Under the pieces are notes generated by a model that worked only from the letters and a program-made list of their open reading frames with translations, ran no database searches and was not told the DNA's origin. A program made the translations under genes and the position numbers. Below, one piece after another: positions 6,001 to 55,658 of a stretch of DNA of 64,000 bases (position 1 is the stretch's first letter; every line of letters begins with the position of its first letter). Source of the DNA: an uncultured Candidatus Saccharibacteria bacterium (lineage in GTDB: Bacteria; Patescibacteriota; JAQUNI01); NCBI GenBank assembly GCA_964555185.1, contig CAZKRD010000004.1, positions 755 to 64,754 of the forward strand, in the 5' to 3' direction.

Positions 6001-6049
6001 GGTGGGGGAGGATATTGAGTTTAATTGGTGGATTGTGGATTCAAACTAA
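2..6049 (+). CDS. Giant repetitive surface/tail-fibre-like protein, 5'-truncated by the window edge (the frame is open from nt 2; the ORF-track Met at 545 is internal). It has repeated Gly/Thr-rich motifs (NVGIGTTxP, GDTTTNMGHSLASDDDLYIEGDLEVDG) and an internal Peptidase_S74-like intramolecular chaperone domain, followed by an ~380-aa acidic coiled-coil tail
   Basis: Translating frame 2 from nt 2 gives no stop codon, and nt 300-545 encode the same repeat seen downstream. The segment SDARKKDVIGTTGRGLQDILEMKVVDFTWKP...GILAQEMYQILPSVVRVPPDEETGLWSIQYNNMVPVLVRAIQEQ matches the endosialidase/tail-spike chaperone (PF13884-like) consensus, including a Ser..Lys dyad. Confidence 0.6.
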   Translation, partial: AYTLYLYDTNQSHLLHVLWNEDDSAHRILNLAVGGGNRAFTLNEDLTIGDGQNVTITALGQANTLTLNESFTIGDGNDGTLTYSASSKTLTVEDDSYINQDLTTDANPTFAGLNADAINIGITSSFEIDTDSNILLLDSNSGTVKIDDDLYITGQVKGDSSFAFGGADTESYNVIGDTTTNMGHSLSSDDDLYIEGDLEVDGSAWFDASVTIADKLTVDGTTLHVNSDTNRVGIGTVSPAKNLDIYDATGAELLLVRDDSSTEINNLLGQILFDANDGLSSVDASVMIRAYASEEHITINKGGYLTFETKRDNVNDNQPANEWMRLTSAGFLGINTTLPDRKLDVLDASNPQLRLTYTDGSVYSEFQTDSGGDLTIDMSGGNLLLADADTFAVGGTLGQAYNVIGDTTTGMGHSLSSDDDLYLEGDLEVDGTAWFDGGITTPSLAISGLTASRLVATDAAKNIVSSDLYAWVTGTANRVTVADDADGTITLSAPQDIHTAANPTFAGLNADAINIGITSSFEIDTDSNILLLDSSSGTVKVDDNLYITGQVKGDSSFAFGGADTESYNIIGDTTTNMGHSLASDDDLYIEGDLEVDGSAWFDASVTIADKLTVDGTTLHVNSDTNRVGIGTTGPTAKLEVSGGNLKMTSGNIALNGNWLSKDGDNEGLYIQSNGYINNFGEGATQNFVIIGTALFRGATFSIENASAKNILVTSGNNINLVTASGGNVGINTVGPDRKLDILDATNPQLRLTHTDGSVYVDMQATSAGHLSISGSGGNVGIGTTTPTSKLHIFSPDDADSWNSAQPLVEITNLDVNATDAAALLVRGGANNVVGLTFQVQDYSGNTDFVITGNGNVGIGTASPNLKVEWADATRSGFLDFGLGGVTIGGAAGNNLALWTNGNQQVTIDTNGNVGIGTTAPDKILEINKSTGGEIRLTYNDSDGSAANYADFSVGSGGDLTIDASGGNLLLADSDTFAVGGALGQAYNVIGDTTTNMGHSLASDDDLYIEGDLEVDGTAWFDGGITTPSLAISGLTASRLVATDAAKNIVSSDLYAWVTGTANRVTVADDADGTITLSAPQDIHTAANPTFAGLNADAINIGITSSFEIDTDSNILLLDSSSGTVKIDDDLYITGQVKGDSSFAFGGADTQNYNVIGDTTTNMGHSLASDDDLYIEGDLEVDGSAWFDSAITVAGDITLTGHLLPSANDQYDLGSDSLRWRDLYLGPGSVHMGVSGNEAIIGYDTTSNYITFDPDGDTTAEMVIDDSGNVGIGTTGPDRKLDIIDSSNPQLRLSYVDSNAYADFQVESNGYLGILPSGKNVGIGTTSPSALLHVAESRTSGTITKLSYPSATTLAGSVIGTDIDLLTNLTPGSYDITGLQITMPSTGTGDHSFAKFIEGSTTLYDFNTVTAQFDVPTSFNAAGDVSLSYDLILTNANASYIKSNGSLYIEAGDPNQNYGLTLSANGSGRVIVSDNFYVTGPVQGDSAFAFGGADTQTYNVIGDTTTNMGHSLASDDDLYIEGDLEVDGSAWFDASVTIADTLTVAGDILATSGVHIGVDTTPNLIDDATNGSDSTTLYIGNKIISTEASDARKKDVIGTTGRGLQDILEMKVVDFTWKPDFDIDSSTINTGILAQEMYQILPSVVRVPPDEETGLWSIQYNNMVPVLVRAIQEQQGQLSVLDDEMLLVNDQIMELSGIISDSMPAFSALDLEIDGLGEELADYGAQIDDLEVRVGDLEGGSDTVPETDLGDNGDTTSESEEVNPESLQETLQTLVDSLDALSGLTSQLGILTDSILTVMESNQVNTARIEELEAEVGELKQIARIVDEKVVIGTPDQYLVLDAASGLEINSENFVLDPDGNVTIAGELNLLSGRINSESGVLELNPGENEEGESKVVVRGDLEVEGDLLVLGTSTEPAVEEVEGEEEERDSITGVAVISAGDTEIVVDNDNISADSLIYITPVSPTQGQVLFVAEKREEEVYDQDRKEWLAQGFTVAVEEEVGEDIEFNWWIVDSN
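1141..1900 (+). repeat. Intragenic near-identical repeat block, copy A, within the giant gene. Related copies lie at ~300-710, 2893-3560 and 4440-4630
   Basis: About 285 nt at 1290-1575 match 3040-3325 with only ~2 mismatches. The motif GDTTTNMGHSL(A/S)SDDDLYIEGDLEVDG recurs 6 times, at nt ~545, 1230, 1728, 2982, 3483 and 4517. Confidence 0.8.
2893..3560 (+). repeat. Intragenic near-identical repeat block, copy B
   Basis: Direct nucleotide comparison with 1141-1900. Confidence 0.8.
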
Positions 6050-6270: not shown

Positions 6271-9200
6271 ATGTTGCTAAAAATAAAAAAACCTATTTGT
6301 TGGTTTAAAAAACTAAGCAAACGAGTTCTGTTTTTAATTATCTTAGGCATCTTCTTTGTCGGTGCCGGAGTTTTTACGATCGTAGCGGTTAATAATCGCG
6401 GCAACGAACCGGTTGCTTGGTGGCGGTTAGACGAGGGCTATGGCACAAGCGCTTATGATGCCAGCGCAAACTCCAACACAGGCACGATAATCAATGCTGT
6501 TTGGAAAAACGAACCCTATTGCAAAACAGGAAAATGCCTCTACTTTGACGGAACCAATGATTATTTATCAATAATTAATGATTCAACACTCAATCCAACA
6601 GAAGGAGTAACAATAGAAACATGGGCAAGACCCAACAACTTTGACTCCTCTGCCTCCTTAATTAAAAAAGACCAGCAATATTCATTAGACATTGCTCAAG
6701 GAGTGCCTAACTTCAGAGCTTACGCCAACTCAAGATGGTATTCTGCCATAGGCGGTGAAAGGGCTTGGCTTTTCAGAGAGCCAGCTGACAACCAGCTTAC
6801 AGGCGATGGCGGAGCCACCTTCACAGAAGCTTTTGGTTACCGAGCCCTAACCCCTGCAAACCTCACAGCAGAAAAAGGAGTACTAATTACTGACGCTGAC
6901 GGCAGTGGCTCTGGAAGTGGCGACAACTTACAATACAGCCGTGGAAGCCAGAGCACCCCCGATGGAACTAATGTTGTCTACGAAAACTTTGATCCAAACC
7001 AAGGCACTTTGGAGTTTTGGGTCAGACCTAATTGGGATGGGGATGATGGGTTAAGGCATTATATAACTCAAGGGTGGCATGACACTAATAATCGTTTTCA
7101 AATACGTAAAGATATTAGCACTAATGATTTATATTTTTCTTATTACGCCAACAGTTCTGGGGCTGACGTAGGGGCTTATGATATATCATCTTGGAACGCA
7201 GGAGTTTGGCACCATATTATAGGAGTGTGGGATAAAAATAATGTGACCAATGGCACCGATAATATAACTTTATATGTTGATGGTTCAAGGATAGCTGGTA
7301 ATGTCACTGACCCTGGACAGGCAGAAGGAGTAGATACTGATTTTCATATTGGCTCTGGCAGAGACGGTGCTGATCAATTCAACGGCACAATTGCTGGCAG
7401 AATATTAAATCGGCCACTGACAAGCACTGAAGTCACGGCTCTGTATAATTCTGGGGCTGGCTCAACCGACACCTTTACCGTCACCCCAGACACGGTTTGG
7501 ATGGGGACTTACTCTGACGACTCCACAACAGCCACATATTGGCATACTGGCAAAAGCGTGTCCGCAATCGCAGACGGAGCAAACGAAGACACCCTGACAA
7601 CCGCCAGCGGAGCAGACAACTCCTTCAGCGATAACGACCGCGTCGTAGTTTACGACGGCACGGGCTACAAAGTAGAGGGTTGTGTGGACGGCGCGCCAAG
7701 CGACACCAGCGTTGCAGTTGACAACTGCGCCGACGCTGACCCAGGAACCACTGAAAATATAGGTGTTCATGCTGAACTAGATTCTTCTACTCCTGAATAT
7801 TTCTATAATGCCGCTGCCTCTATGAAGCCAGGCGATGGCGTTGATTTCTATGTTGCCGCGTGGGTAAATCCAGCAGTGGTTGGTACATATATTATTTTTC
7901 AATCAGGTCTGCCTTATGCTTGGGTAGATCGTGCTGGTTATTATTTTTACATGTCTGGTGATAAAATTGGAATTCGTCTTGATGATGAAACTGATACGGG
8001 TGGTGGTGCGTTTACTTCAGAAGCTTGTATTGTAGCTGATAAGTGGCAGCACATAGCAGTGAGAGTAGATAGGGATGATTTAGCTTATTTTTTCTGTAAT
8101 GGTTATGCCGCAGGAACTGCAAATGTATCAGGGTATGATGGTGACTTATCTGATGCTGCTATTACTAGGATTGGAACAGGTTATAATGGAGCAGGTAATC
8201 CGCAATATAGTTTTGATGGTAAGATTCGTGACGTTAGAATACAGGTAGGTGGAACACAGCCCTCAGATGCGCAGATTTTGTATCAAGCAACGCATCCTTT
8301 GGATTATACCGCAAGTTCATGGACACTGAATGGTTCTCGAGGATATTACACTATGACAGACTCTGATATGTCTTCTGGTTTGACAGCTTCAGGAGATGCC
8401 ATTGCTTTGTTAACTGCGGGTGGTGGTAATCCTAGGGAACAAGAAGCGTTTGTTAGCAAAAACCTGATTCAAGACGGGTCAATGGAAAACGGGGGAATAG
8501 GGGAGTGGCAAGTCGGCGATGTAGCAACAACTCTGGCCAAAGATACCACAACAATAAAATACGACAACCAATCATTAAAAATCACTAACGCTGACGCCAG
8601 TCAGGCGTTTGCTCGCCAAAGCATTACCACAGTCGCAGGCGAGGATTATTATTTTAATGGTTGGTTTTATGGTCCCTCTACAGTCAACGGCGCAAGTCAA
8701 TTAGTTGATGTTGATGCTACTGCGGCATTAGGTGTAACAGCCACACAAGCAGGCGCTATTGCCTCAACATGGAAAGAGGTGGATTTTTGCTTTGAAGCTG
8801 GCGACACCTCTACTGACATTGATTTGGGCAGTGGTTCTGTTATTGATACTGAAATTGGCTATTGGGATTCTGTAAAGCTCCTCCCCAACCTTATTGATGA
8901 CGGTGGCATGGAGGGGGCTTATACTAGCTGTGGCGCATCACTTACATTGTCATCAGTCAATACTACGTTTACATCAACTAGAGTAACAGATGGCTCTGCC
9001 TGGACTTTGTCCAGCGTCATTTCAGGATATATAGCCATAGCCAGTGGTGGTTCAAAAGGAATGATTACTGTTGTTGACGACGGTTCTGATTATGTAGATG
9101 TAGAAAATTGGGATGCTGGAACACCAAGCAATGGCGAAACCGTACGTATTTATTATGCGCTACCTGACGGATGGTCAACTTCAATTTGTAATTCTGCGAG

Positions 9201-12200
9201 CAAACCTCGTCGACTTGAAGGTCGTACTGGGAGTTATGCTCAACAACTTAGAATGGGCGCCGCTAGCTGTACCCATTATTTGTATCAAGACATAGCTGGG
9301 TATGAAGATTTTAAAGGTAAATATCTGACCTTAAGCGCTTGGGTTAATGGTAACTGGAGTATTGGCGCTGGCTCTTGCACACCTCCTTATATTATGATTG
9401 ATGATGGTGTGTCAACTGTCTCGTCAGAAACAAAGAGCGTTGATGATGGTTGGGAGAAGTTAATAATCACTAAGCTGATAAGTGATAGCGCAACCAAAAT
9501 CAGAGTAAGATTATATGTGCCTTATTATATTTATTCAACATGGGATGATATTTCTCTTGTTGTCCTTGATGATATTTCTCCAAGTACGGCTACGCCGTCA
9601 ACCGAGGCAAATTCTTTTGGCACAGGTAAGTGGAGCGACACGAACGGCGCATTTCTGGTTGACGGCGGAGATACTTTAACATACACACAATCTGGCAATC
9701 TTGACAACGAGGCAGGCACAGTGGCTTTTTGGGTGAAACCAAATGGCTACGACGAATCAACTCCAGTGGACAAATACTGGATTGACACCCGCGACTCAAC
9801 CCCAGACCAAGGGTTTTATGTGTATATGAACTCAACCGAAGACGATGTGGTATTTGCCGGCAATGACAGCGTTAATGTTTGGGCGGCCACCTCAACAGCA
9901 ATTGATTGGAGCGTTAATGCCTGGCACCACATAGCAGTAACCTACGACTGCTCACAAGCAGGTGGCTCTGACGAAGTCTACTTATATATTGATGGCTCCG
10001 TAGCGGCTTCAGATACTTCAGAAACCTGCGCTTCTTGGACTCTGCCAACTAATATGTATGTAAATAGTGATTATGCTGGAGCAAACCAAGGAGATGCTTA
10101 TCTTGATGATATTAGAACATATGACTCAGTGCTTTCATCAACAGAAATTACTGATATTTATAACAACACAAAATTGCGGACTGTTTCTGCCAACGAATGG
10201 GCGCATTTAACAGGGGTTTATTCAAAAGACGACGCTAATCTAAAAATTTATAAAAATGGGGTGTTGCAGAATACAGTGGCTGTGGGCGCCAGCTACGACT
10301 TAGCAACCAGCTCAAATAATTTAATGCTCGGCGAAGCATTTTTCGGATTTTTAGACGAGCCCCGCATATACGACTATGCTAGAACCGCTGACCAAGTTAA
10401 AGCTGACTATGTTGCTGCTTCGTCTTTGCGTGGAGCTTCTGGCAGAGCTGTAACAGTTGGGGAAGGGATTGACTCAAGCGAAGGGCTTGTGGCTCACTGG
10501 GCAATGGACGAGTCCGCGTGGGACGGCACTACAGATGAGGTTGTTGACTCCTCTGGCAATGCCAACCACGGCGTGCGTGTCGCCGATGCCAACACCACAA
10601 GCACCGCAAAATACGGCAGAGCAGGGACTTTTGATGGCACAGGGGATTATGTGGATATTGGAATCGGCCCCACTGCGGTAAACGTGGTAGCTTTTTGGGC
10701 AAATCCAGGCACCACATCAGATTATTTTATAGACTTGAACGGCTCTGCCTATATTAGCGTATCATCCGGGACTTTATCGGCAACAGGATTTACTGATCCA
10801 ACAATTTATGTAAATGGCGCAGTGTCTAATACTATCGTAGCTAGCGCGTGGCAGCACATTGTTGTTACAACAAATACTAGTATCAATGCCAGTGATTTGG
10901 ATATAGGCAGATTAGAAGGAACAGATGATTATCAAGGGGAAATTGATGATGTTAAGATGTATAGCGTTATTCGTTCAGCCAGTCAAATCCGCAAGGATTA
11001 TGAAACCGGCCCGCCACCTGACCTGCACTTAAAAATGGATGAAAACACCGGCGATACGGTTTATGATACAGCAGGAGAGAATGATGGGATTTTGGGTACT
11101 GGCTCTGGTGTTGATGTAAGGGATCCTTCTTGGGCTCCTGGTAAATATGGCAGTGGCTTAAAGCTTGATGGTTATGATGATCGTATAATAGTAAGCCATG
11201 GAAGCGCTTTTGAATTTGGAAGGGGGAATTTTACGATTGCCTTTTGGGCAAAAATAATCGACAATATTCGTATGGGAAAAGACTATTATTATGGTGAAAG
11301 CCCAGCGGGCGAGAATAGGTGGGCGATTCACTCAGCTGGCTATGGCCAAGGGATTATGTGGCAGTCTGCTAACTGCGGGGATGGCTCCAATGATGTCATG
11401 GTGGGTGCTGGCAGTAGTGGCGATTATGCTGACGGCGAGTGGCGTCATTTTGCTTTTGTTAAAAAGGATCAGATAGGATATTGGTATATCAATAGCGTTG
11501 ATAAAACCAGTTGGCGGTCTGATTCTTTTGCTGATTTTGGTTGTTCTTTGAGTAATGACAGAACTTTAGTAATGGGAAGATATACCAGATATCCTGTTGA
11601 TGGAACTGATTATATGGATGGTTCTTTTGATGATTTTAGAGTTTATAAATATGCCCGGACGCAGAAGCAGATTATGGAGGATATGAACGCAGGCCACCCA
11701 GCAGTTGGCTCGCCTGTTGGCTCGTATGTCGGCTATTGGAAGTTTGATGAGGGCTATGGCACTACTGCTTATGATAATTCTGTTAATGATAATGATTTAA
11801 CCCTTTCTAACGAATCCTGGGAAACAGATTGCAAGTTTGATAGTTGCTGGGACGGAGATGGCACAGAATATGTTTATCGCAATGATGATCCTGACTTTGA
11901 TTTTGGGGCTACTGATGACTTCGCAATCACGGGCTGGTTTAAACACGATACGATCGCTGATAACCCAGATTATCTAGTGGTAAAGAATAATGGCAAGGGC
12001 TACAAAATCTATATGGATTCTGACGGCGACCTTGCCTTTGGCATTGATGATGATGCCAGCTTTGACCCTGATGATGTAGTCGGCGATGATCAATCAAAAA
12101 ACTATGATGATAATACCTGGCACCATTTTGCCGCAATCGCAAACGATACTACTTCAATCAAACTCTATGTTGACGGTATCAAGATAGATGAAGACACCAC

Positions 12201-13827
12201 AATCGAAGCCTCTGGCACCCTAGCAAATGCCGACCCTCTCTACATCGGAGTAGATGATGACGGCTCTTCCAATCCTTGGGATGGTGAGATCGATGAACTT
12301 AAGATCTACCGTTTTACCTTGACGCCAGAAGAGATCAAACAAGAATACAATCAAAGCAAAAGCCTTGTTTTGGGTTCAAAGTCAACAGAATCTGACGGCA
12401 CCACTCCATCCAATTCAGCTTCAAGGGAGTACTGCGTCCCTGGAGACACAACATTTTGTGATCCGCCAGTGGCGCACTGGCGGATGGATACAAAAGGAGG
12501 GGATACGGCTTATGATTTAGCCGGATCGAATGACGGCACCTTGGGCAGCGGCGCTGGCGCTGACTCTGCTGATCCTGTGTGGCGACATGAAGACCGCTGC
12601 CACGAAGCGGGCTGTCTTGATTTTGATGGGGTGGATGATTATGTGGATGCGGGGAACGATGATTCTTTGACTAATATCAGTGAACTTACAATTTCAGCTT
12701 GGATAAATAGCCCTCTTCTATTTGAGGAATCTGCTGGCTCTGATTTAGGGTCTATTGTAGACAACGATGATAATGAAAATTATCAAATGAGAGTTAATGA
12801 GGATGGTCAAGTAATTCTTAATCTAGGTGGCGCATGGAATGCGTGTAGAACTGCAGGTGGAGCTATAACAGCAAATACTTGGCATCATCTTGTAGGCACA
12901 TACGATGGCTCAAATTGTGAAATTTTTGTTGATGGAATTAGTAAAGATACTGGAACAGGTGGAGCATTAATTGATTCTGCAGAACCTGTTTATATTGGCA
13001 AAAGAAAAGATACGGCTACTGAACGTTTTAATGGTATCATAGACGACGTCCGTATATACGACTACGCCCGAACACCAGCCCAAATCGCCTGGGAGTATAA
13101 TAGGGGAGCGCCTGTTGGCTGGTGGAAAATGGATGAGGGTCAGGATTCAGAAACAACCTGCAACGCCACTGGCTCAACTGTGTATGACTACTCTGGCAAC
13201 GGCAATAACGGAACCCTTTCACTCCAACCTGCTGGCAACACAGCCACTACAACTGCATGGTCCGAAGGCAAATACTCCTGCGCCCTCGACTTTGACGGCA
13301 CTGATGATTATGTGGAGATCGGAGATAGTGACTCTTTAGATAACACAAACCAATTGACAATTTCTACTTGGGTTTATCCAGAATCTATTTCCAATAGAGG
13401 TATTTTGGCAAAAAGAGTTGCTTTTCAGGATAATCACTCATATGACCTTTATTTTGCTTCAAGTAAATTATATGTTGATATTGATAGTAATAATGATAGA
13501 TTTAGTAGTAATAAAATTTTCAGCACCAACCAATGGTATCATATTGTGGTTGTGTATGATGGAACATTAGCATCTGCTCAGCGGGCTAAAGTTTATGTAG
13601 ATGGTGTTTTGGACAAAACGGCAACTGAAACAAGCACATCTATTCCAAACTACGCCTCGAATTTTTATATTGGGGTTTTAAAAACAGACCCTGGGACAAC
13701 TTGGGAATTCGACGGTCTCATAGACGACGTCCGCATATACAACTACGCCCTAACCCCGTTGCAAATTCGCACACTTTACAACGAGAATTCAGCGGTGAGA
13801 TTTGGACCTACCGAGGGATTGCCGTAA
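6271..13827 (+). CDS. Giant membrane-anchored multi-lectin protein. N-terminal TM helix, at least 9 LamG-like (Laminin_G_3/concanavalin-A-like jelly-roll) domains and two CBM_4_9-like modules
   Basis: The unit W(W/K)(L/F)DEGxG..aYD.SgN.n.GT.....G..G.al.FDGtdDYv...WhHiavtYD...lYvDG....iDdvRIY(D/N)YA(R/L)T..qI recurs about 9 times. NLIQDGSMENGGIGEWQ and NLIDDGGMEG look like carbohydrate-binding-module starts. The hydrophobic stretch at aa 18-40 is a signal anchor. Confidence 0.75.
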   Translation: MLLKIKKPICWFKKLSKRVLFLIILGIFFVGAGVFTIVAVNNRGNEPVAWWRLDEGYGTSAYDASANSNTGTIINAVWKNEPYCKTGKCLYFDGTNDYLSIINDSTLNPTEGVTIETWARPNNFDSSASLIKKDQQYSLDIAQGVPNFRAYANSRWYSAIGGERAWLFREPADNQLTGDGGATFTEAFGYRALTPANLTAEKGVLITDADGSGSGSGDNLQYSRGSQSTPDGTNVVYENFDPNQGTLEFWVRPNWDGDDGLRHYITQGWHDTNNRFQIRKDISTNDLYFSYYANSSGADVGAYDISSWNAGVWHHIIGVWDKNNVTNGTDNITLYVDGSRIAGNVTDPGQAEGVDTDFHIGSGRDGADQFNGTIAGRILNRPLTSTEVTALYNSGAGSTDTFTVTPDTVWMGTYSDDSTTATYWHTGKSVSAIADGANEDTLTTASGADNSFSDNDRVVVYDGTGYKVEGCVDGAPSDTSVAVDNCADADPGTTENIGVHAELDSSTPEYFYNAAASMKPGDGVDFYVAAWVNPAVVGTYIIFQSGLPYAWVDRAGYYFYMSGDKIGIRLDDETDTGGGAFTSEACIVADKWQHIAVRVDRDDLAYFFCNGYAAGTANVSGYDGDLSDAAITRIGTGYNGAGNPQYSFDGKIRDVRIQVGGTQPSDAQILYQATHPLDYTASSWTLNGSRGYYTMTDSDMSSGLTASGDAIALLTAGGGNPREQEAFVSKNLIQDGSMENGGIGEWQVGDVATTLAKDTTTIKYDNQSLKITNADASQAFARQSITTVAGEDYYFNGWFYGPSTVNGASQLVDVDATAALGVTATQAGAIASTWKEVDFCFEAGDTSTDIDLGSGSVIDTEIGYWDSVKLLPNLIDDGGMEGAYTSCGASLTLSSVNTTFTSTRVTDGSAWTLSSVISGYIAIASGGSKGMITVVDDGSDYVDVENWDAGTPSNGETVRIYYALPDGWSTSICNSASKPRRLEGRTGSYAQQLRMGAASCTHYLYQDIAGYEDFKGKYLTLSAWVNGNWSIGAGSCTPPYIMIDDGVSTVSSETKSVDDGWEKLIITKLISDSATKIRVRLYVPYYIYSTWDDISLVVLDDISPSTATPSTEANSFGTGKWSDTNGAFLVDGGDTLTYTQSGNLDNEAGTVAFWVKPNGYDESTPVDKYWIDTRDSTPDQGFYVYMNSTEDDVVFAGNDSVNVWAATSTAIDWSVNAWHHIAVTYDCSQAGGSDEVYLYIDGSVAASDTSETCASWTLPTNMYVNSDYAGANQGDAYLDDIRTYDSVLSSTEITDIYNNTKLRTVSANEWAHLTGVYSKDDANLKIYKNGVLQNTVAVGASYDLATSSNNLMLGEAFFGFLDEPRIYDYARTADQVKADYVAASSLRGASGRAVTVGEGIDSSEGLVAHWAMDESAWDGTTDEVVDSSGNANHGVRVADANTTSTAKYGRAGTFDGTGDYVDIGIGPTAVNVVAFWANPGTTSDYFIDLNGSAYISVSSGTLSATGFTDPTIYVNGAVSNTIVASAWQHIVVTTNTSINASDLDIGRLEGTDDYQGEIDDVKMYSVIRSASQIRKDYETGPPPDLHLKMDENTGDTVYDTAGENDGILGTGSGVDVRDPSWAPGKYGSGLKLDGYDDRIIVSHGSAFEFGRGNFTIAFWAKIIDNIRMGKDYYYGESPAGENRWAIHSAGYGQGIMWQSANCGDGSNDVMVGAGSSGDYADGEWRHFAFVKKDQIGYWYINSVDKTSWRSDSFADFGCSLSNDRTLVMGRYTRYPVDGTDYMDGSFDDFRVYKYARTQKQIMEDMNAGHPAVGSPVGSYVGYWKFDEGYGTTAYDNSVNDNDLTLSNESWETDCKFDSCWDGDGTEYVYRNDDPDFDFGATDDFAITGWFKHDTIADNPDYLVVKNNGKGYKIYMDSDGDLAFGIDDDASFDPDDVVGDDQSKNYDDNTWHHFAAIANDTTSIKLYVDGIKIDEDTTIEASGTLANADPLYIGVDDDGSSNPWDGEIDELKIYRFTLTPEEIKQEYNQSKSLVLGSKSTESDGTTPSNSASREYCVPGDTTFCDPPVAHWRMDTKGGDTAYDLAGSNDGTLGSGAGADSADPVWRHEDRCHEAGCLDFDGVDDYVDAGNDDSLTNISELTISAWINSPLLFEESAGSDLGSIVDNDDNENYQMRVNEDGQVILNLGGAWNACRTAGGAITANTWHHLVGTYDGSNCEIFVDGISKDTGTGGALIDSAEPVYIGKRKDTATERFNGIIDDVRIYDYARTPAQIAWEYNRGAPVGWWKMDEGQDSETTCNATGSTVYDYSGNGNNGTLSLQPAGNTATTTAWSEGKYSCALDFDGTDDYVEIGDSDSLDNTNQLTISTWVYPESISNRGILAKRVAFQDNHSYDLYFASSKLYVDIDSNNDRFSSNKIFSTNQWYHIVVVYDGTLASAQRAKVYVDGVLDKTATETSTSIPNYASNFYIGVLKTDPGTTWEFDGLIDDVRIYNYALTPLQIRTLYNENSAVRFGPTEGLP

Positions 13828-14038: not shown

Positions 14039-17000
14039 ATGTTTGCAAAAGTTAATCCCAGGCCCAATTTTCCAAAAATCGAAAAAAAGATTTTAGATTA
14101 TTGGGCGAAAAATAAAATATTTAAAAAAAGCGTAGACAAGAAAGCAAGCAAAGGCAACTACGTGTTTTTTGAGGGTCCGCCAACAGCAAATGGCAAACCC
14201 GGCGTGCATCATATAGAGGCGCGGGCTTTTAAGGATTTGTTTCCGCGCTATAAAACAATGCGAGGGCACAGGGTAGTAAGGAAAGCGGGCTGGGACACGC
14301 ACGGATTGCCGGTTGAATTGGAGGTTGAGAAGAATTTAGGGTTCTCGGGCAAGCGCGACATTGAGGAGTATGGGATCGAGAGGTTTAACAGGAAATGTAA
14401 AGTTTCAGTCTGGAAATACAAAGAGGATTGGGAAGAGATGACCCGCCGGATTGGTTTTTGGCTGGATATGGAAGATCCTTATGTTACTTTTGATAATGAT
14501 TATATTGAATCGGTTTGGTGGATAATAAAGCAGGTTTGGGATAAAGGATTGCTCTATCAGGGCCATAAGGTCGTCCCCTATTGTCCGCGGTGCGGAACCG
14601 CGCTTTCGAGCCATGAGGTGGCGCAGGGGTATAAGAAAGTGAAAGAGGAGAGCGTGTTCGTTAAGTTCAAAATCAAAGATCAAATCTCAAAAATCAAAAA
14701 TACAAATCAAAAGTCAAAAATTAAAATCACTTCGCGATTTTTGAATGGAAAAGAGGATGTTTATTTTTTAGCCTGGACCACGACGCCTTGGACTCTGCCA
14801 GGGAATTTGGCATTGGCTTTGGGGGAGGATATTGATTATGTTTTAGTAGAAGTAGGAGCAGGCCTTGTGCCTGCCCTGCATCGGAATGACGCAGAGCCTG
14901 CCCAGGGCGACCACAAGGGTCGCCCCTACAGAGAATGTTTCATTTTGGCCCGAGAGCGGTTGGAAATTTTAGAGGGGAAGTATAAGATAATTAAGGAATT
15001 TAAAGGTAAGGATTTGGCAGGGACCCCCTATGAGCCGTTGTATCCGGTTTTTAGCGGCGAAGAGAGCGAGCATATCTACCATTCTGTTTTGGCCGATTTT
15101 GTAACCACAGATGAGGGCACGGGGATTGTCCATACGGCTGTGATGTATGGGGAGGATGACTATCGGTTGGGAGAGAAGTTGGGGCTGCCGAAAAGACATA
15201 CAGTAAACTTACAAGGTAAATTCAAAGTCAAAAATCAACCTTCGAGTCCTGAGCCTCAGGTCGAGGGAAAGTCAAAAATAGAAGCTGCTTTGCAGCTTTT
15301 GAGAAAGATAGAGGGCAAATTTGTTAAGGATGCGGAGGGTGATATAGTTTCTGATTTAAAGAAGCGCGGATTGTTTTATAAATCCGAGATGTATGAACAT
15401 GATTATCCGTTCTGCTGGCGGTGCAAGACGCCGCTTTTATACTATGCGAAGAAGAGTTGGTTTATTGCGATGAGTAAATTGCGTAAAAAACTAAAGGAGA
15501 ATAATGAAGAAATTAATTGGGTTCCAGACTATCTCAAACACGGCCGTTTTGGTAAATGGCTGGAGGAGGTCAAGGATTGGGCTGTATCGAGGGAGAGGTA
15601 TTGGGGAACGCCGCTGCCGGTTTGGCAATGCCAAACTGGTAATTTCCAATTTCCAATTTCCAATTTCCAAACAAATTACAAATTACAAATTTCAAATTCC
15701 AGACAGTGTGGTAATGTTAGAGTTATTGGTTCTGTAAAAGAGTTAGAAAAATTGAGTAATAGGAAAATTGGGGATTTGCATCGGCCGGATATTGACAAGA
15801 TTAAGTTTAAATGTGAAAAATGCGGCGGGGAGATGAGGAGAGTATTGGAGGTAATTGATTGTTGGTTTGATGCGGGTTCAATGCCGTTTGCCCAGTATCA
15901 TTATCCATTTGAAAATAAGGCAAAGATAGACCGAGGAGAGCAGTACCCTGCTGATTTTATTTGCGAGGCAATCGACCAGACCCGAGGCTGGTTTTATACG
16001 CTTTTGGCGATTTCAACGCTCTTAGATAAGGGCACTTCTTATAAAAATGTGATTTCTTTGGGTCATGTTTTGGACGTTCGAGGCCAAAAAATGAGCAAAT
16101 CGCGTGGGAATGTGGTTGATCCTTTTAAAGCTTTAGAGCAATATAGCGCAGATGCTTTGCGCTGGTTTTTCTATACCGTGAATAAGCCGCAGGAATCAAA
16201 GAATTTTGACCCGCAGATTTTGCGCGATATTGTCTCGCGGTTTATTTTGACGCTGTGGAACTCGTATTCTTTTTTTGTGACGTATGCGAATATTGATAAA
16301 TTTGGTAGGGGCGACCCTAAGTGGTCGCCCGGCACGAGATTTTACAGAAGAGGGCGGCCACACGGGGCCGCCCCTACGGGGAATATTTTGGATAAGTGGA
16401 TTATTTCTAGATTAACAGGGTTGAACAAAAAAATTGTTCAATACTTGGATGATTACAATGTCTTGCGATCAGCCAAAGAGATTGAGAAGTTTGTTGACGA
16501 TTTATCCAATTGGTATATTAGGCGTTCACGCCGCAGGTTTTGGAAGAGCGAAGACGATCAGGATAAAACAGAAGGATATCAAACCTTGTATTTTGTGCTG
16601 GTCAATTTAAGCAAAATCTTAGCTCCTTTTATGCCCTTTGTTTCGGAAGAGATTTATCGCAACTTGACCGGAGACGATTCAGTGCATTTAGCCGCCTTTC
16701 CGGAAATAGATCAGAAATTATTTGATCAGAAGCTGAATCAGCAGATGGAATTTGTCCGTCAGGTTGTGGCTTCGGGCTTAAGCTTAAGGGCAAAGGCGGG
16801 GATTAAAGTTCGCCAGCCTTTAAGTAAATTCAAAGTGCAAAGTGCAAAGTGCCTGCCTTCGCCAAGGCTTCGGCAGGCAGGCAAAGTGACCGCAGGTCAT
16901 CTTGAGCGTCAGCCAAGGATCTCACCTCCTTTGTTAGAGTTGATTAAAGAAGAGCTGAATGTGAAGGAGGTTAAGTTTGTTTCTGGGCTTAAGAAGGCGA

Positions 17001-17338
17001 AAGGCTTCTTGACAGCAGAAGAGGGAGGAATTAAAGTTGGTTTGGATACGAAAGTTACTCCAGAATTAAAGCGCGAAGGGATGGCGCGCGATTTAGTCAG
17101 GGCGATTCAAGAGGCGCGCAAAAAAGCAGGCTTTCAGGTTTCAGATCGGATTGAATTGTTTGTAGAAAGAAAAGGTATGAAGTTCAATAAAGCGATTTCA
17201 GAGTGGGAAGAGTATATTAAGAAAGAGACTTTAGCAGTTAAGATTAGCGATCAGAAGGGTGATGTTGATTATAGTGAGATAGTGAAAATAGAGGGAGAAG
17301 AGGTTTGGGTAGGAGTAAAGAAGATTAAGTCAGATTAA
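14039..17338 (+). CDS. ileS: Isoleucine--tRNA ligase carrying about 6 in-frame repeat-element insertions
   Basis: Class I motifs P..ANG.PGVHH and KMSKSRGN, WTTTPWTLP, and a C-terminal Zn region. Insert coordinates are listed as separate repeat features. Confidence 0.9.
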   Translation: MFAKVNPRPNFPKIEKKILDYWAKNKIFKKSVDKKASKGNYVFFEGPPTANGKPGVHHIEARAFKDLFPRYKTMRGHRVVRKAGWDTHGLPVELEVEKNLGFSGKRDIEEYGIERFNRKCKVSVWKYKEDWEEMTRRIGFWLDMEDPYVTFDNDYIESVWWIIKQVWDKGLLYQGHKVVPYCPRCGTALSSHEVAQGYKKVKEESVFVKFKIKDQISKIKNTNQKSKIKITSRFLNGKEDVYFLAWTTTPWTLPGNLALALGEDIDYVLVEVGAGLVPALHRNDAEPAQGDHKGRPYRECFILARERLEILEGKYKIIKEFKGKDLAGTPYEPLYPVFSGEESEHIYHSVLADFVTTDEGTGIVHTAVMYGEDDYRLGEKLGLPKRHTVNLQGKFKVKNQPSSPEPQVEGKSKIEAALQLLRKIEGKFVKDAEGDIVSDLKKRGLFYKSEMYEHDYPFCWRCKTPLLYYAKKSWFIAMSKLRKKLKENNEEINWVPDYLKHGRFGKWLEEVKDWAVSRERYWGTPLPVWQCQTGNFQFPISNFQTNYKLQISNSRQCGNVRVIGSVKELEKLSNRKIGDLHRPDIDKIKFKCEKCGGEMRRVLEVIDCWFDAGSMPFAQYHYPFENKAKIDRGEQYPADFICEAIDQTRGWFYTLLAISTLLDKGTSYKNVISLGHVLDVRGQKMSKSRGNVVDPFKALEQYSADALRWFFYTVNKPQESKNFDPQILRDIVSRFILTLWNSYSFFVTYANIDKFGRGDPKWSPGTRFYRRGRPHGAAPTGNILDKWIISRLTGLNKKIVQYLDDYNVLRSAKEIEKFVDDLSNWYIRRSRRRFWKSEDDQDKTEGYQTLYFVLVNLSKILAPFMPFVSEEIYRNLTGDDSVHLAAFPEIDQKLFDQKLNQQMEFVRQVVASGLSLRAKAGIKVRQPLSKFKVQSAKCLPSPRLRQAGKVTAGHLERQPRISPPLLELIKEELNVKEVKFVSGLKKAKGFLTAEEGGIKVGLDTKVTPELKREGMARDLVRAIQEARKKAGFQVSDRIELFVERKGMKFNKAISEWEEYIKKETLAVKISDQKGDVDYSEIVKIEGEEVWVGVKKIKSD
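14668..14730 (+). repeat. In-frame AT-rich simple-sequence patch inside ileS (aaatcaaagatcaaatctcaaaaatcaaaaatacaaatcaaaagtcaaaaattaaaatcac, encoding KIKDQISKIKNTNQKSKIKIT)
   Basis: Same caaag/caaaa module family as the intergenic repeats. Codes a low-complexity K/I/N peptide between conserved IleRS blocks. Confidence 0.5.
14858..14930 (+). repeat. In-frame GC-rich insert inside ileS. It ends in a reverse-orientation REP palindrome gggcgaccacaagggtcgcccctac (14905-14929)
   Basis: 8-bp perfect stem gggcgacc/ggtcgccc plus a cccctac tail, which is the reverse complement of the gtaggggcgac head found in the RAYT gene. Confidence 0.6.
15218..15281 (+). repeat. In-frame hairpin mini-element inside ileS, flanked by the direct repeat aagtcaaaaat
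   Basis: caaagtcaaaaatcaacc-ttcgagtcctgagcctcaggtcgaggg-aaagtcaaaaatag. GC-rich palindromic core in an AT-rich gene, with an 11-bp flanking duplication. Confidence 0.5.
15641..15700 (+). repeat. In-frame heptamer microsatellite (ttccaat x4 followed by caaattacaaattacaaatttcaaattcc) inside ileS, encoding NFQFPISNFQTNYKLQISN
   Basis: The identical ttccaatttccaatttcc array also occurs in metG (28938-29003) and in the 55.06-55.14 kb palindrome. Confidence 0.65.
16352..16377 (+). repeat. In-frame REP-like palindrome inside ileS (gggcggccacacggggccgcccctac)
   Basis: Stem ggcggcc/ggccgcc plus a cccctac tail. Encodes RGRPHGAAPTG. Confidence 0.55.
16827..16890 (+). repeat. In-frame type-2 GC hairpin element inside ileS (caaagtgcaaagtgcaaagtg-cctgccttcgccaaggcttcggcaggcagg-caaagtgacc), flanked by the direct repeat gcaaagtg
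   Basis: Inverted ends cctgcc..ggcagg. The same core occurs in tgt (21617-21669) and at 57427-57470. Confidence 0.65.
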
Positions 17339-17339
17339 T

Positions 17340-17472
17340 TTTCAATTTTCAAGTACCAATTTACAATCAATTTTCAATAACCAATGATTAAATGTTCAAA
17401 CGGTTTGAAAATTTAATCATTTAAAATTATGATTTGATTGAAAATTGAGAATTGTAAATTGAAAATTAACCA
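17340..17472. repeat. AT-rich long imperfect palindrome (ttttcaa/ccaatga modules, centre caaacggtttg) filling the ileS-recO spacer
   Basis: The left arm ttttcaattttcaagtaccaatttacaatcaattttcaataaccaatgattaaatgttcaaac is approximately the reverse complement of the right arm. Confidence 0.75.
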
Positions 17473-18210
17473 ATGTATTTTTCGAAAAAAATAAAAGGGA
17501 TTGTGATTAAGCGAAGGAAGCACCAAGAGGCGGATTTGATTTTGACGATTTTTTCTGAAAGTTTAGGCAAGATTGAGGCGCGGGCCAGGGGATTGCGCAA
17601 GGCGAAAAGTAAAATGGCTGGCCAGTTGGAGCTTTTTAATCTAGTAAAAATAGAACTTCATCGCGGCAGGTTTTGGGATTTGATTATTGGCGCGGAAAGC
17701 ATTAATAATTTTTCTAACCTTAAAGCAAACCTTAAAAAATTGGTCCTTGCTCATTTTTTCGCGGAATTTGTTGACAAGTTTACGCCAGAAGGAGGGAAGG
17801 ATATCCGTTTTTACAATATTTTTCGGGATATTTTTTTGGATTTAGATCGTTTTTCAAAGAGGCGAGAGTATTTGAGAGCTTTTATTGGTGGCGAGGTTAG
17901 ACTTTTAAAACATTTAGGCCTCACTCCCTGTTTGGATCGGTGTCTCGGCTGCGGCGCTCTTCTTTCGGGCGGCCGTTTTAAATTGGGAGAAGGAGGGGTC
18001 TATTGCCCAAATTGCTCGACAGGGGTAAAGTACAGTGATTCGATTGACCAGAGGACACTTTCGTTTTTATCCCAAGAGACGCGAAGTCAGGCGCGAGAGG
18101 TCAAAGGCAATGAGCAGGATCTGAAGAAAGTCAGCTTGGCGCTGGCAGGATTCTTTGCCGCGGCCTGTCTTGAGAGGCCAAGGGCGCTTGAGTTTATTAA
18201 AAAGCTTTAA
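17473..18210 (+). CDS. recO: DNA repair protein RecO
   Basis: N-terminal OB-fold pattern (GIVIKRRKHQEADLILTIFSESLGKI) and a C-terminal CxxC...CxxC zinc finger. Confidence 0.7.
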   Translation: MYFSKKIKGIVIKRRKHQEADLILTIFSESLGKIEARARGLRKAKSKMAGQLELFNLVKIELHRGRFWDLIIGAESINNFSNLKANLKKLVLAHFFAEFVDKFTPEGGKDIRFYNIFRDIFLDLDRFSKRREYLRAFIGGEVRLLKHLGLTPCLDRCLGCGALLSGGRFKLGEGGVYCPNCSTGVKYSDSIDQRTLSFLSQETRSQAREVKGNEQDLKKVSLALAGFFAAACLERPRALEFIKKL

Positions 18211-18332
18211 TCAATTTTCAATAACCAATGAATAAATTTTCAAACAAAACCATTTTCGCAGGTTTGAAAATTAAATCATTGAACCTTCGGATTTGATTGA
18301 AAATTGAGATTTGTAAATTGAAAATTACCTTT
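18211..18332. repeat. AT-rich palindromic element, same family, with core ttttcaaacaaaaccattttcgcaggtttgaaaatt
   Basis: The core is the reverse complement of the core at 57200-57240, so the same element is present in both orientations. Confidence 0.75.
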
Positions 18333-20168
18333 ATGATCAACCTTGCCTACCCTAAAGTAGGGCCAAAGAGAAAGTCTTCGGGCAGGAAGCGCGGCATAAT
18401 TTTAGCGGTTTTAGTTTTAGTTTTTCTTTTTGGAGGAGCTTCTGGTTGGTATTTTTTTATTTTTCAAAAACAAGCGGATAATTTTACAGGCCAAGGGGTG
18501 GAAGTAAAAATCGAGGCGCCGGAGGAGGTGATTTCCGGCTCTTCTTATCAATACACGATTGAATACGTTAATAACGAAAAGGTGGCGCTTGAGAATGCCT
18601 CGCTTGTCCTTTATTTCCCCTCCGGTTTTAATTTTACTGATTCTTTACCAGAGCCGGATTCAAAGGGAGAGAGCGAAGAGGCCAATGTCGCTTTTAAGGT
18701 TCAGGGCGATTCCTCTTCCCGTACCTGGGATTTGGGAAGACTGGATCAGGGGGAGCGGGGAATAATTAAGTTTAAAGGGATTATTTTGGGGGATTTGGGT
18801 TCAACCAACGCTTTGAGTGCGCATTTGAGCTACCAGCCGGAGAATTTCAGCTCCAGTTTTTCAGCAGAAGGCGGGACTAGCGTGTTGGTTAAAAAATCGC
18901 TGGTTGATTTTGATTTAGAACTGCCCGAGAAGACAGGAAAGGGGAGAGAGGTTGAGATCGCGGTTTTATACCGTAATATCACCTCGGAAGATTTAGAGAA
19001 TGTGCGGATTATCCTGAATTATCCAGAAGGATTTTCTTTTATCTCATCAGAACCAAGAGCAGATCGCGAGGATCGGGTTTGGGATTTTCGAGTTTTGCGG
19101 CGCGGCGAGCGGGGGCGGATTGATCTTAAGGGGAAGATAGATTCGGGAGAGTCTTTAGCTGCCTTTAGCGCAGAGCTTGGGGTTGTGGATCAGTATAAGC
19201 AGTTTTTCAGCCAAGTCAAGCAGGAGAAGAAGATGATTGTTTTAAACCCCTTATTGGAAATAACCGCTACGATTAACGGCGAGGAGGAGACGAAGATCAA
19301 TCCCGGCGATGAGCTTAGATTTATCTTTACTTATGCTAATCTTGGGGATGTCAGGATTGAGGATGGAACAATCAACTTCTCTATGGAAACAGGGCTTTTG
19401 GATACCAGTTCAATCTCGATTTTAGAAGGTCATTATGATGCTAACGAATTCACTTGGGATGCCGGCTCTTCCTTGGGCTTGGCGAGGGTGGAACCGGGGG
19501 AAAAGGGCAGGGTAGAATTTGGAGCTCAACTTTTACCTGTTTTCCCCTATTCCTCTTTGGATAAGCGGAACTTGGAACTCTCGGGCAAAGCGCGTTTTGA
19601 AAGCAATAGTGTTGACGGACTCCGAGGGTTTGATTTTGAGACCGAGAGCAATGAATTGAGAGCGAAAATCAACACCGAGCTTGATTTGGTTTCGGAAGCG
19701 CGATATTTTGACCTTGATTATGAACAGGCAGGTTCAGGCCCTCTGCCGCCTAAAGTGGGGCAAAAAACCATTTATCGTATTTATTGGACGCTTTCTAACA
19801 CGACTAATGACGCGGAGAATGTTCAAATTAAAACTATCCTGCCGGAAGGGGTGGCTTTCGGGGAGGATTTTTTCTCTTCTTTTGGCAATGAATTAGAGTA
19901 TGATCCGGAGACAAGAGCCGTGATTTGGGATTTGGGCAGGGTGCAGGCCTATGCCGGCAGTGTTTTGGCAGGCGCGCGGGCTTGGTTTGAGGTTGGTGTG
20001 ATCCCGACCGCGGACCAGGTAGGCCAAACTCCGCCATTAACGGAAGAGATTTTTGTTTCGGGACAGGATTTGTTTACCGAAGCCAGAATTGAGAATGAAC
20101 ATCCGAGTTTAAATACAGAATTGACTAATGATTTGGGAGCATTGGGGAAAGGGGAGGTGGTGAAGTAA
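18333..20168 (+). CDS. DUF11 (conserved repeat domain) membrane-anchored protein. The ORF-track start at 18297 lies inside the palindromic repeat, so the ATG at 18333 is preferred
   Basis: N-terminal TM helix followed by about 4 repeats of the pattern ..Y.i...N.g...a.nv.i....P.G..f....p......W.lG.l..Ge.g.i...g. Confidence 0.6.
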   Translation: MINLAYPKVGPKRKSSGRKRGIILAVLVLVFLFGGASGWYFFIFQKQADNFTGQGVEVKIEAPEEVISGSSYQYTIEYVNNEKVALENASLVLYFPSGFNFTDSLPEPDSKGESEEANVAFKVQGDSSSRTWDLGRLDQGERGIIKFKGIILGDLGSTNALSAHLSYQPENFSSSFSAEGGTSVLVKKSLVDFDLELPEKTGKGREVEIAVLYRNITSEDLENVRIILNYPEGFSFISSEPRADREDRVWDFRVLRRGERGRIDLKGKIDSGESLAAFSAELGVVDQYKQFFSQVKQEKKMIVLNPLLEITATINGEEETKINPGDELRFIFTYANLGDVRIEDGTINFSMETGLLDTSSISILEGHYDANEFTWDAGSSLGLARVEPGEKGRVEFGAQLLPVFPYSSLDKRNLELSGKARFESNSVDGLRGFDFETESNELRAKINTELDLVSEARYFDLDYEQAGSGPLPPKVGQKTIYRIYWTLSNTTNDAENVQIKTILPEGVAFGEDFFSSFGNELEYDPETRAVIWDLGRVQAYAGSVLAGARAWFEVGVIPTADQVGQTPPLTEEIFVSGQDLFTEARIENEHPSLNTELTNDLGALGKGEVVK

Positions 20169-20214
20169 TTTTCAATTTTCAATTTTCGAATTTTCAATCA
20201 ATTTTCAATACTCA

Positions 20215-20574
20215 ATGACAAAATTTTCAAACAATAAATTTGACCTTGAGGAAAGAACAGCTAAGTTTGCTGAAAATATTATTGATTTAGTAAGAAGTAT
20301 TAAAAAAGATGATGTTAATCGCCGTATTATTAGCCAAGTAGTTAGCTCTGGAGGTTCATTGGGCGCTAATTACTGCGAGGCCAATGAGGCAGAAAGCAGA
20401 AAAGATTTTGTTCATAAAATAGGTATTTGCAAAAAAGAAACAAAAGAAGTTAAACATTGGCTCCGCTTATTAGCCAGAAGCAACCCAGAGAAAAAAGATA
20501 GAATTAGATTGTTATGGCAGGAAGCCCACGAATTATTATTAATCTTTTCCAAGATTAGAAGATCGTGTGTGTAA
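20215..20574 (+). CDS. Four-helix-bundle protein (TIGR02436 / 23S rRNA intervening-sequence protein family)
   Basis: SSGGSLGANYCEANEAESRKDFVHKIGICKKETKEVKHWLRL matches the family hallmark S..aNi.Eg..r.s..df..f..ia.gS..E. Confidence 0.7.
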   Translation: MTKFSNNKFDLEERTAKFAENIIDLVRSIKKDDVNRRIISQVVSSGGSLGANYCEANEAESRKDFVHKIGICKKETKEVKHWLRLLARSNPEKKDRIRLLWQEAHELLLIFSKIRRSCV

Positions 20575-21901
<1,327 letters not shown>

Positions 21902-23262: not shown

Positions 23263-23376
23263 AAATTCAAAATTCAAAATTCAAAGTTACAGTTTCAAGT
23301 TTAAAGTTTTTAAATTCACAATTTTTAACTTTGAATTTAACTTTGGACTTTGTACTTTGGACTTTGTACTAAAATT
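23263..23376. repeat. Palindromic simple-sequence element (aaattcaaa tandem on one arm, aactttgNact tandem on the other) abutting the next start codon
   Basis: aaaattcaaaattcaaaattcaaagttacagtttcaagtttaaagttttt / aaattcacaatttttaactttgaatttaactttggactttgtactttggactttgtact. Confidence 0.7.
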
Positions 23377-41196: not shown

Positions 41197-41256
41197 AAAA
41201 AGCCTCTATTAAATCCTTCTTTTTACATTTTGAATTTTCATTTTGCATTTTGACAT

Positions 41257-55060: not shown

Positions 55061-55061
55061 A

Positions 55062-55645: not shown

Positions 55646-55658
55646 AGGTTTTTGTTTT

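Follow-up and report, generated by a model that had tools for sequence, protein, structure and literature searches.

In Rickettsia conorii, Rickettsia palindromic elements (RPEs) of ~150 bp are present in 44 copies genome-wide, and about half of them lie in open reading frames (ORFs) (PMC10969869). Intragenic GTAG and CGTC repetitive extragenic palindromes (REPs), many of them dimers that code for 20-30 amino acids (aa) and some of them located in tRNA synthetases, were reported by Di Nocera et al. in 2013 (PMC3733652), and systems combining REPs, or inverted REP doublets forming a hairpin (REPINs), with a REP-associated tyrosine transposase (RAYT) were described by Nunvar in 2010 (PMC2817692) and by Bertels and Rainey in 2011 (PMC3116915). 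Bacterial MITEs, the miniature transposable elements with inverted repeats (Coxiella QMITE, Anabaena MITEs, ERIC, BOX), are small, non-autonomous structured repeats that sometimes lie in ORFs and add a peptide (PMC10969869, PMC5896051). In this work we analysed a 64-kb stretch of DNA (contig CAZKRD010000004.1; hereafter the window) from a Candidatus Saccharibacteria bacterium, in which the isoleucyl-tRNA synthetase gene ileS bears six in-frame repeat patches and several other housekeeping genes bear further ones. We consider it very probable that structured, multi-copy DNA elements landed or expanded inside these coding genes, and that they were kept where they lay in frame in permissive loops. 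Palindromic repeats that keep the reading frame have been published before, GTAG REPs in tRNA synthetases among them, so the principle itself is not new; in the library searched we found no paper linking the candidate phyla radiation (CPR)/Patescibacteria with REPs, RAYTs, RPEs or in-frame palindromes.

The window makes up ~9% of a genome of ~707 kb (~0.7 Mb), and all copy counts given below cover the window alone. As sister comparators we used two syntenic metagenome contigs, L001 (from ileS to a TP-methylase gene) and L084 (metG-tatD-leuS), whose proteins are 84-95% identical to those of the window; the identity at 4-fold degenerate sites in ileS, which serves as the neutral level, is 0.76. 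The more distant IleRS relatives compared were L118 and L002 (~60% identity). A query of the genome contig collection with IleRS returned only distant relatives (<=53% identity) and no close comparators. The ileS sites were measured from one conserved anchor to the next in an alignment of 96 sequences, the comparison set being 88 other IleRS sequences of Patescibacteria, and an AlphaFold2 model was built on the same alignment. Hairpin folding was scored as z against shuffled sequences.

Six repeat patches interrupt the ileS gene in frame

The ileS gene (14039-17338, + strand) is a single intact ORF for a type-2 isoleucyl-tRNA synthetase of 1099 aa with the KMSKS motif present. Among solved structures it is best matched by IleRS2 of Priestia megaterium (8c8w, E = 6e-256) and by Thermus IleRS (1ile), and its close homologues all belong to the Patescibacteria/CPR, the lineage that had been guessed in an earlier examination of the bare DNA (the sequence-only reading). 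That reading had also claimed six repeat-like patches within ileS that leave the frame open. We found all six where it had placed them, all in frame; each insert is without a stop codon in the host frame and codes a low-complexity segment predicted to be disordered.

Patch 1 (14663-14730, + strand) is an AT-rich array coding KDQISKIKNTNQKSKIKI, for which Tandem Repeats Finder gives a period of 7 and 8.4 copies. It sits in the loop directly before the editing-domain motif WTTTPWT, and the alignment with 8c8w has a 23-aa gap there. Patch 2 (14852-14929, + strand) is a 78-nt, REPIN-like REP doublet with GTAGG...CCTAC ends and two hairpins; it codes VGAGLVPALHRNDAEPAQGDHKGRPY and folds with -22.3 kcal/mol (DNA; z = -4.2), the arms being 74% complementary. 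Patch 3 (15224-15279, + strand) consists of a 32-nt hairpin (15236-15267; z = -3.5) between two 12-nt direct repeats, AAAGTCAAAAAT. The fourth patch (15638-15703, + strand) is a heptamer palindrome, AATTTCC x4 followed by ACAAATT x4, with a weak palindromic fold, and it splits a CxxC knuckle, so that C-x2-C (WICEKCG in one relative) becomes C-x25-C. At patch 5 (16305-16377, + strand) there is a 73-nt REPIN, made of GTAGGGGCGACC..GGTCGCCC, a spacer and GGGCGGCC..GGCCGCCCCTAC, which codes GRGDPKWSPGTRFYRRGRPHGAAPT and folds with -22.4 kcal/mol (DNA; z = -4.6; arms 81% complementary). The sequence-only reading had seen here a second REP at 16352-16377; it is a REP, but not a single unit, the doublet extending over 16305-16377. 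Patch 6 (16831-16888, + strand) combines CAAAGTG x3, a 30-nt GC hairpin, CCTGCCTTCGCCAAGGCTTCGGCAGGCAGG (16852-16881, CCTGCC..GGCAGG; z = -3.4), and one more CAAAGTG, and the pattern of this hairpin has one match in the window against 0.01 expected. Across the ileS patches the hairpin z thus ranges from -3.4 to -4.6. Peptides encoded in frame at the insert junctions include TGNFQFPISNFQTNYK, QTGNFQFPISNFQTNYK, GDPKWSPGTR and LPSPRLR.

Sites 1 to 6 contain 34, 35, 32, 25, 38 and 40 residues, respectively, in comparison to medians of 11, 11, 10, 2, 21 and 17 in the 88 other Patescibacteria enzymes. The length of the whole protein is 1099 aa versus a median of 977 aa, and as the six patches add ~130 residues, they account for the whole excess; the repeat-derived share of IleRS is ~12%. 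The AlphaFold2 model has a mean predicted local distance difference test score (pLDDT) of 87.3 and a predicted template modelling score (pTM) of 0.83. The only stretches with pLDDT<50 are aa 224-232, 278-293, 536-554, 764-779 and 939-959, which are patches 1, 2, 4, 5 and 6, and aa 401-410 (patch 3) have a mean pLDDT of 52. By the model, the inserts would lie in flexible, disordered surface loops. Together with the gaps relative to 8c8w and the varying presence among relatives, these predicted low-confidence stretches agree with the earlier proposal that the patches are lineage-specific indels at surface loops.

The same elements are read in different codon phases

The GC-rich elements belong to two classes. 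Class A comprises GTAG-headed REPs, single or as inverted doublets. The units are imperfect palindromes of 20-40 nt with a 5' GTAG head (REPs are defined by GTAG or GGAG), and two pairs of them, 14852-14929 and 16305-16377, are inverted and form a hairpin, as REPINs do. Of the seven units counted in the window, ileS has four, the ORF at 30094-30693 two and tgt one. The form GTAGGGGCGACC..GGTCGCCC occurs at 16305, 21374 and 30217 and, reversed, at 14929, 16377 and 30404; in patch 2 the left-hand REP departs from it and reads GTAGGAGCAGGC..GCCTGCCC. The single REP in tgt (21374-21398, + strand) lies in frame and gives +5 aa relative to solved TGT. It is read in phase 0 as VGATRGSP, and so is a REP in the ORF at 30094-30693, whereas in ileS the phase is 1 and the peptide is GRGDPKWSP.

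Class B comprises GC-rich hairpins of ~30 nt, with copies in ileS, tgt and mfd and one intergenic copy (about 57436-57470). All three phases are in use: the hairpin codes an 11-residue peptide in tgt (21626-21656, + strand; in frame, inside an 18-aa insertion relative to solved TGT), LPSPRLRQAG in ileS, and PPSLNRLRRTS in mfd (54030-54064, - strand; in frame, outside the part covered by the alignment with solved Mfd). The hairpin core, GCCTTCGC-N6-GCTTCGGCGGRCARGC, was also present in 33 metagenome contigs (L085-L117), often within a larger hairpin, and as the GC content of these contigs spans 0.36-0.68, the motif is a cross-phylum one; an open-frame test on these contigs is unreliable at high GC. 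Class B hairpins recurrently adjoin heptamers of the CAAAGTN type. Direct repeats flank the 30-nt hairpin of ileS (CAAAGTG) and the patch-3 hairpin (AAAGTCAAAAAT), and they are ambiguous as target duplications; at the 30-nt inserts found only in the sister no target duplication was seen, nor was a parent insertion sequence (IS) for the hairpins seen in the window.

Relatives carry repeats of their own. In ileS of L118, a 28-nt element, CAGCCCAAGGCTGATCCGCCTRGGGCGG, fills sites 1 to 3 and is used in two phases, and L002 has five copies in total of two other elements. Three copies of another element in the relatives likewise fall in two phases. Since the same element appears in different codon phases, these segments are multi-copy DNA and not protein modules. 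Other widespread in-frame peptides coded by repeats, ...GDCRVVPRGLGTPRNDD... and ...CHAEFSSASKKSSQEILKQVQDD..., were noticed in the IleRS relatives P0008 and P0005, which suggests that many more element families may take part across the clade.

Inserts are gained and lost between close relatives

The patches vary in presence between the window and the sister contigs as well as among the relatives, and in this respect too they behave as lineage-specific indels. Only the window has the patch-2 REP doublet, missing from L001, and at patch 6 it exceeds the sister by 51 nt. Both have the patch-5 REPIN, whose second loop in the sister houses a nested 30-nt hairpin of the patch-6 family. Further inserts present in the sister only are a hairpin of 30 nt in the gene for the M16 peptidase and, in leuS, a 51-nt double hairpin nested within the first array and a 21-nt step (three heptamers) in the second. 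All the indels between window and sister are multiples of 3. At site 6, L118 has CAAAGTT x3 and CAAAGTG without a hairpin, L001 has one unit, and the window has four units and the hairpin; this series suggests that arrays may grow and shrink in 21-nt steps and that hairpins may insert at the unit boundaries. At site 4, within the CxxC knuckle, a whole 69-nt block is either present or absent, the empty form being TGTGAAAAATGC, without a heptamer seed. The presence of this insert differs within three sister pairs or clades with 95-100% bootstrap support, therefore at least three gain or loss events took place at this one spot.

The divergence of patches 1 and 3 equals or exceeds that of neutral sites. 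In patch 1 the identity to the sister is 29% for amino acids and 67% for nucleotides over 21 codons (0.68 for nucleotides over the 66-nt span), versus 87% in the remainder of the gene. The patch-3 site of the sister is filled by an AT-rich array of equal length with 48% nucleotide identity, below the neutral 76%. A sister genome with the same peptides coded by non-repeat DNA would have spoken against inserted repeats, and the comparison did not reveal such a case: patches 4 and 5 share repeat nucleotides with the sister, and at patches 1 and 3 the sister has another AT-rich array. In patch 4, the window and L002 are identical at 80% of nucleotides as compared with 44% of 4-fold sites (P = 2e-9), and the same C-to-T change is found in 4/4 units. 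To judge from the aligned nucleotides, this is a pattern of concerted change or re-insertion and not of ordinary coding evolution.

These observations bear on the possibility that the inserts are adaptive, lineage-specific protein modules, such as partner-binding or localisation loops, kept by selection on the peptide. Such selection could explain why some inserts are common to relatives of ~60% identity, e.g. NFQF(P/S)I(S/F)NFQ at site 4, and why patches 4 and 5 are conserved above the neutral level; however, the conservation of patch 4 reaches third codon positions, thus it acts on DNA and not on the peptide, and patches 1 and 3 diverge at or beyond the neutral rate. One DNA element yields unrelated peptides in several phases, unrelated sequences occupy the same loops in different lineages, and presence differs even within tight sister pairs. 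The VGATRGSP segment of the RAYT, which is conserved across the CPR clade, would again suit an adaptive role, but the segments are in general low-complexity and predicted to be disordered. We hold peptide selection to be very unlikely as the origin of the patches.

AT-rich heptamer arrays occur inside genes and in the spacers

The third class, C, consists of AT-rich arrays and palindromes of heptamers. For AATTTCC x3 we counted 12 matches in the window, where 0.01 would be expected by chance, and a strict period-7 criterion, applied to the window and to 20 shuffles, gave 12 arrays in the former and 0 in the latter. Four of these 12 strict arrays are internal to genes (two in ileS, one each in metG and leuS) and six start at or beside a stop codon, with TAA as part of the first unit. 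All four internal ones are found in genes for class I synthetases, whose share of the coding sequence is ~12%. In a self-comparison of the window with 14-mers, noisy peaks appeared at patches 1, 4 and 6, metG, leuS and the intergenic palindromes; with 12-mers (1 mismatch) the signal was lost in the background.

In metG, an array coding INFQFPISNFQINPNFQFPNSKL follows GNLVAR (28936-29010, + strand; AATTTCC x4 and further units). As the sequence-only reading had noticed, it is identical to that of ileS: the same 28-nt AATTTCC x4 (28939-28966) codes the same peptide, NFQFPISNFQ. The claim that it is an insertion is valid relative to the sister and close relatives, which are shorter by 8 to 11 aa, but not relative to Thermus MetRS (1a8h), against which there is no net gain; the metG array therefore partly replaces a native segment. 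The related array expected before TTRPDT in leuS was present as well (31296-31368, + strand; KFQITNDKLQTNSKSNIPKNY), with a net +12 aa versus 1h3n. Patch 1 of ileS, before WTTTPWT, and this leuS array, before TTRPDT, take equivalent positions at the editing-domain entry of two paralogous synthetases. The second AT-rich patch of leuS is located at 32545-32594 (+ strand) and is the one that is longer by 21 nt in the sister.

The reference copy of the AT-rich family is an intergenic heptamer palindrome that runs from the ileS stop codon (TAATTTTCAATTTTC...; 17335-17469), with 67-nt arms and z = -7.2. Similar palindromes (AATTTYC... / ...GRAAATT) fill most intergenic spacers, usually starting from the upstream TAA (17335-17469, 18206-18301, 20160-20234, 20592-20754, 41165-41244, 47187-47337, 55043-55152 and 57137-57351), and a role as terminators or 3' stabilisers is conceivable. 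The patches had been called indistinguishable from the intergenic repeat families; this is true of the AT-rich arrays and of the 30-nt hairpin, with its copy at about 57436-57470, while for the REPs the window gives it no support, every copy being inside an ORF.

For this class only, the patches could be local tandem arrays that arose by replication slippage or unequal recombination, the same mutational process acting everywhere. Period-7 arrays are common in the window and abut stop codons, the heptamer count at site 6 varies (four in L118, one in L001, four in the window), and the exact 21-nt difference from the sister within the leuS array is explained equally well in this way. The four patch-4 units changed together in L002, as such a process would allow. 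On the other hand, ileS and metG have, at unrelated positions, the same 28-nt block as part of 64 nt that agree to 86%; the two-arm palindromic build of patch 4 resembles the intergenic elements; and the 69-nt block at site 4 comes and goes where the empty form offers no heptamer seed. Slippage is hence a real possibility for class C, but on balance not the one that we would choose.

A RAYT-like transposase gene with internal REPs

The ORF at 30094-30693 (+ strand), between tatD and leuS and overlapping the leuS start, is an intact RAYT-like gene for an IS200-like Y1/HUH protein with HIH and YY motifs. It scores 30.3 bits with Pfam Y1_Tnp (cut-off 23), its best NCBIfam model is REP_Tyr_transpos (REP-associated tyrosine transposase; 66 bits versus a cut-off of 80), and close homologues carry the JGI label RayT. 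Two GTAG REPs lie in frame inside it, one before and one after the HUH motif, at 30217-30241 and 30380-30404 (aa 42-49 and 96-104). The CPR RAYT clade has the REP-coded VGATRGSP in common, an insertion of 7-8 aa as compared with RAYTs of other phyla, and the second REP overlaps a G..R.AP motif present in all the RAYTs compared.

In the sister, the RAYT gene (L084, 2617-2748) has suffered an internal deletion of 382 nt; both REPs and the catalytic motifs are gone, and only the two gene ends are left. The same sister has no patch-2 doublet, and its patch-5 REPIN is degraded and interrupted. In this single comparison, the loss of the RAYT together with the absence of the REP doublet agrees with a RAYT-dependent maintenance of REPs.

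The inserts are probably translated

As the indels relative to the sister are all multiples of 3 and the inserts are stop-free in the host frame, it can be argued that they are translated, and not spliced out or bypassed. In composition-matched shuffles of the AT-rich patches, a given frame is open in only about 13-26% of cases, and several inserts are closed in other frames. Segments bypassed by the ribosome are known from phage T4 gene 60 and from the 'byp' GC-cluster elements of yeast mitochondria. Mobile GC clusters of fungal mitochondria, including 'byp', are short GC-rich hairpins that spread into the genes of a compact genome, and 'byp' elements need not be in frame. Most inserts in the window are stable hairpins too, and they might accordingly be removed from the mRNA or skipped by the ribosome. 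Unlike 'byp', though, they are all in frame and stop-free, and no such constraint on length or on stop codons would be expected of segments that are removed. A scan with Rfam at the gathering threshold found in the window one tRNA only (46238-46324, - strand), and no ribozyme or intron family that would explain the hairpins. We thus regard removal or bypass as highly improbable.

An artefact of assembly was also considered, as the source is a metagenome and repeats are a classic cause of mis-joined reads. The exact 1099-aa protein is, however, encoded on three contigs that differ in size class and of which the largest is a scaffold of 706,972 bp (ENA ERZ23486238, scaffold_1), and in independent JGI, ENA and NCBI assemblies relatives likewise have inserts at these sites, all of them in frame. 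The chance that the patches are chimeras, which had been named beforehand as a possible refutation, is in our view negligible.

Further affected genes and the surroundings

Two genes end within heptamer palindromes. The C-terminal tail and stop codon of Sua5/YrdC lie in the left arm of the palindrome at 41151-41244 (+ strand). In pth (ORF 55106-55687, - strand) the palindrome at 55043-55152 (- strand) takes in the stop codon together with the 11 codons before it (IFNFQIPISNQ). As both genes run into a palindrome arm, their last ~10 codons and stop are repeat-encoded. The sequence-only reading was right about the position of the pth tail and stop and wrong in calling the palindrome perfect, since its 41-nt arms are only 78% complementary.

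The called ORFs of DUF11, tgt, NIF3 and recO begin upstream of the starts in the sister (18297-18332, 20741-20758, 23350-23376 and 17473-17541, respectively). The extra codons of DUF11 and NIF3 are inside heptamer arrays, where the repeats make spurious TTG/ATG extensions. A small gene for a '23S rRNA intervening sequence protein' (PF05635; 20215-20574) has heptamer palindromes on both flanks; its product is 46% identical to that of the sister, as compared with 83-95% for the neighbours, and L118 has such a gene beside ileS as well. At the beginning of the window there are two giant ORFs, 545-6049 (1834 aa, with internal repeats of ~1.2-1.75 kb) and 6271-13827 (2518 aa, with many LamG/Laminin_G_3 domains), which are probably surface proteins unrelated to the patches.

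How the elements may have entered and persisted

The reading that we favour, in which structured multi-copy elements landed or expanded inside coding genes, would work as follows. Copies would survive selection only when in frame, free of stop codons and placed in a structurally permissive loop or a domain linker. Class A elements were most likely moved by the RAYT at 30094-30693, an HUH/Y1 single-strand DNA transposase, as in other REP-RAYT systems. The class B hairpins, which at 30 nt correspond to 10 codons and are frame-neutral, would insert cleanly, often in the loops of older elements or at heptamer boundaries, and class C arrays inside genes would change only by three units (21 nt). The inserts would evolve mostly without constraint at the protein level and turn over between close relatives, and the same loops would be used again in different lineages, each with repeat families of its own.

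Several points weigh against this reading. The boundaries of patch 2 relative to the sister are ambiguous, as another GC segment, of 21 nt, stands at this place in the latter. All seven REP units (7/7) are intragenic and free intergenic ones were not seen, so the high-copy, mainly extragenic distribution of REPs was not recovered, in counts that come from 64 kb of ~707 kb. The short flanks of the RAYT gene hold no REPs, both units being internal; the score of its product is below the curated NCBIfam cut-off; and the link between the presence of a RAYT and a new REP doublet comes from one comparison only. The conservation of patches 4 and 5 exceeds that of neutral sites, so that some constraint or function may be involved. 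The 21-nt step in leuS fits slippage just as well, and the arguments for translation are drawn from sequence.

A more unified scheme would make GC hairpins and heptamer arrays one mobile system not described before, in which the hairpins insert beside CAAAGTN heptamers, the arrays are landing pads or footprints, and the loops of essential proteins are continuously remodelled at a limited set of hot spots across the Patescibacteria, with the REP-carrying RAYT clade involved in the same arms race. We find it unlikely; if it were true, parasites, and not adaptation, would be the source of a considerable part of the 'CPR-specific insertions' in conserved proteins.

Comparison with known systems

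CPR genomes are regarded as extremely streamlined, yet here ~12% of an essential enzyme is repeat-derived and its CxxC knuckle is split. Should our interpretation be correct, selfish DNA shapes core proteins in the CPR/Patescibacteria, and REPIN-RAYT biology gains a new phylum and an intragenic mode of life. There are practical consequences for annotation: start codons may be mis-called in arrays, hidden Markov model scores fall under curated cut-offs, and protein lengths are inflated. 'CPR-specific insertions' may also be over-interpreted, and the repeatedly reused sites show, as a natural map, which loops of class I aminoacyl-tRNA synthetases are permissive.

The Rickettsia-like situation that the sequence-only reading had proposed, selfish DNA tolerated inside ORFs, is supported by the lineage-specific in-frame indels, the loop location and the multi-copy nature of the DNA. 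As with RPEs, palindromic multi-copy DNA lies in frame in unrelated housekeeping genes of a small, reduced genome, and the tolerance of RPEs was ascribed to permissive protein positions (PMC10969869). In-frame insertion compatible with the fold, typical of RPEs, was found in ileS, tgt and leuS. The density is indeed unusual, with at least 16 in-frame elements in 64 kb, well above that of the 44 elements of the whole R. conorii genome, about half of them in ORFs (PMC10969869). RPEs, however, are about 100-150 bp long and form alphaproteobacterial families, each with a conserved peptide, whereas the units in the window have 25-78 nt, fall into three or more unrelated classes, are used in several phases, may be nested, and reach six in one gene. 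From unit size and lineage, membership in RPE families 1-10 seems implausible, and the likeness would be functional only.

MITEs are usually >100 bp, have terminal inverted repeats and target-site duplications, and can be traced to an IS; the hairpins described here have 30 nt and are flanked by repeats of 7 or 12 nt. With REP/REPIN-RAYT systems, class A shares the 5' GTAG head, the GC-rich imperfect palindrome and inverted doublets folding as a long hairpin, and the genome has a RAYT-like Y1/HUH gene. The differences are that all REPs of the window are intragenic, that the RAYT has internal and not flanking REPs, a feature conserved in the CPR RAYT clade, and that the host is a Patescibacterium of ~0.7 Mb. 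What differs here from the systems described so far is the CPR host, the density, the nesting of unrelated classes, the reuse of the same loops by different families, and a RAYT clade with internal REPs.

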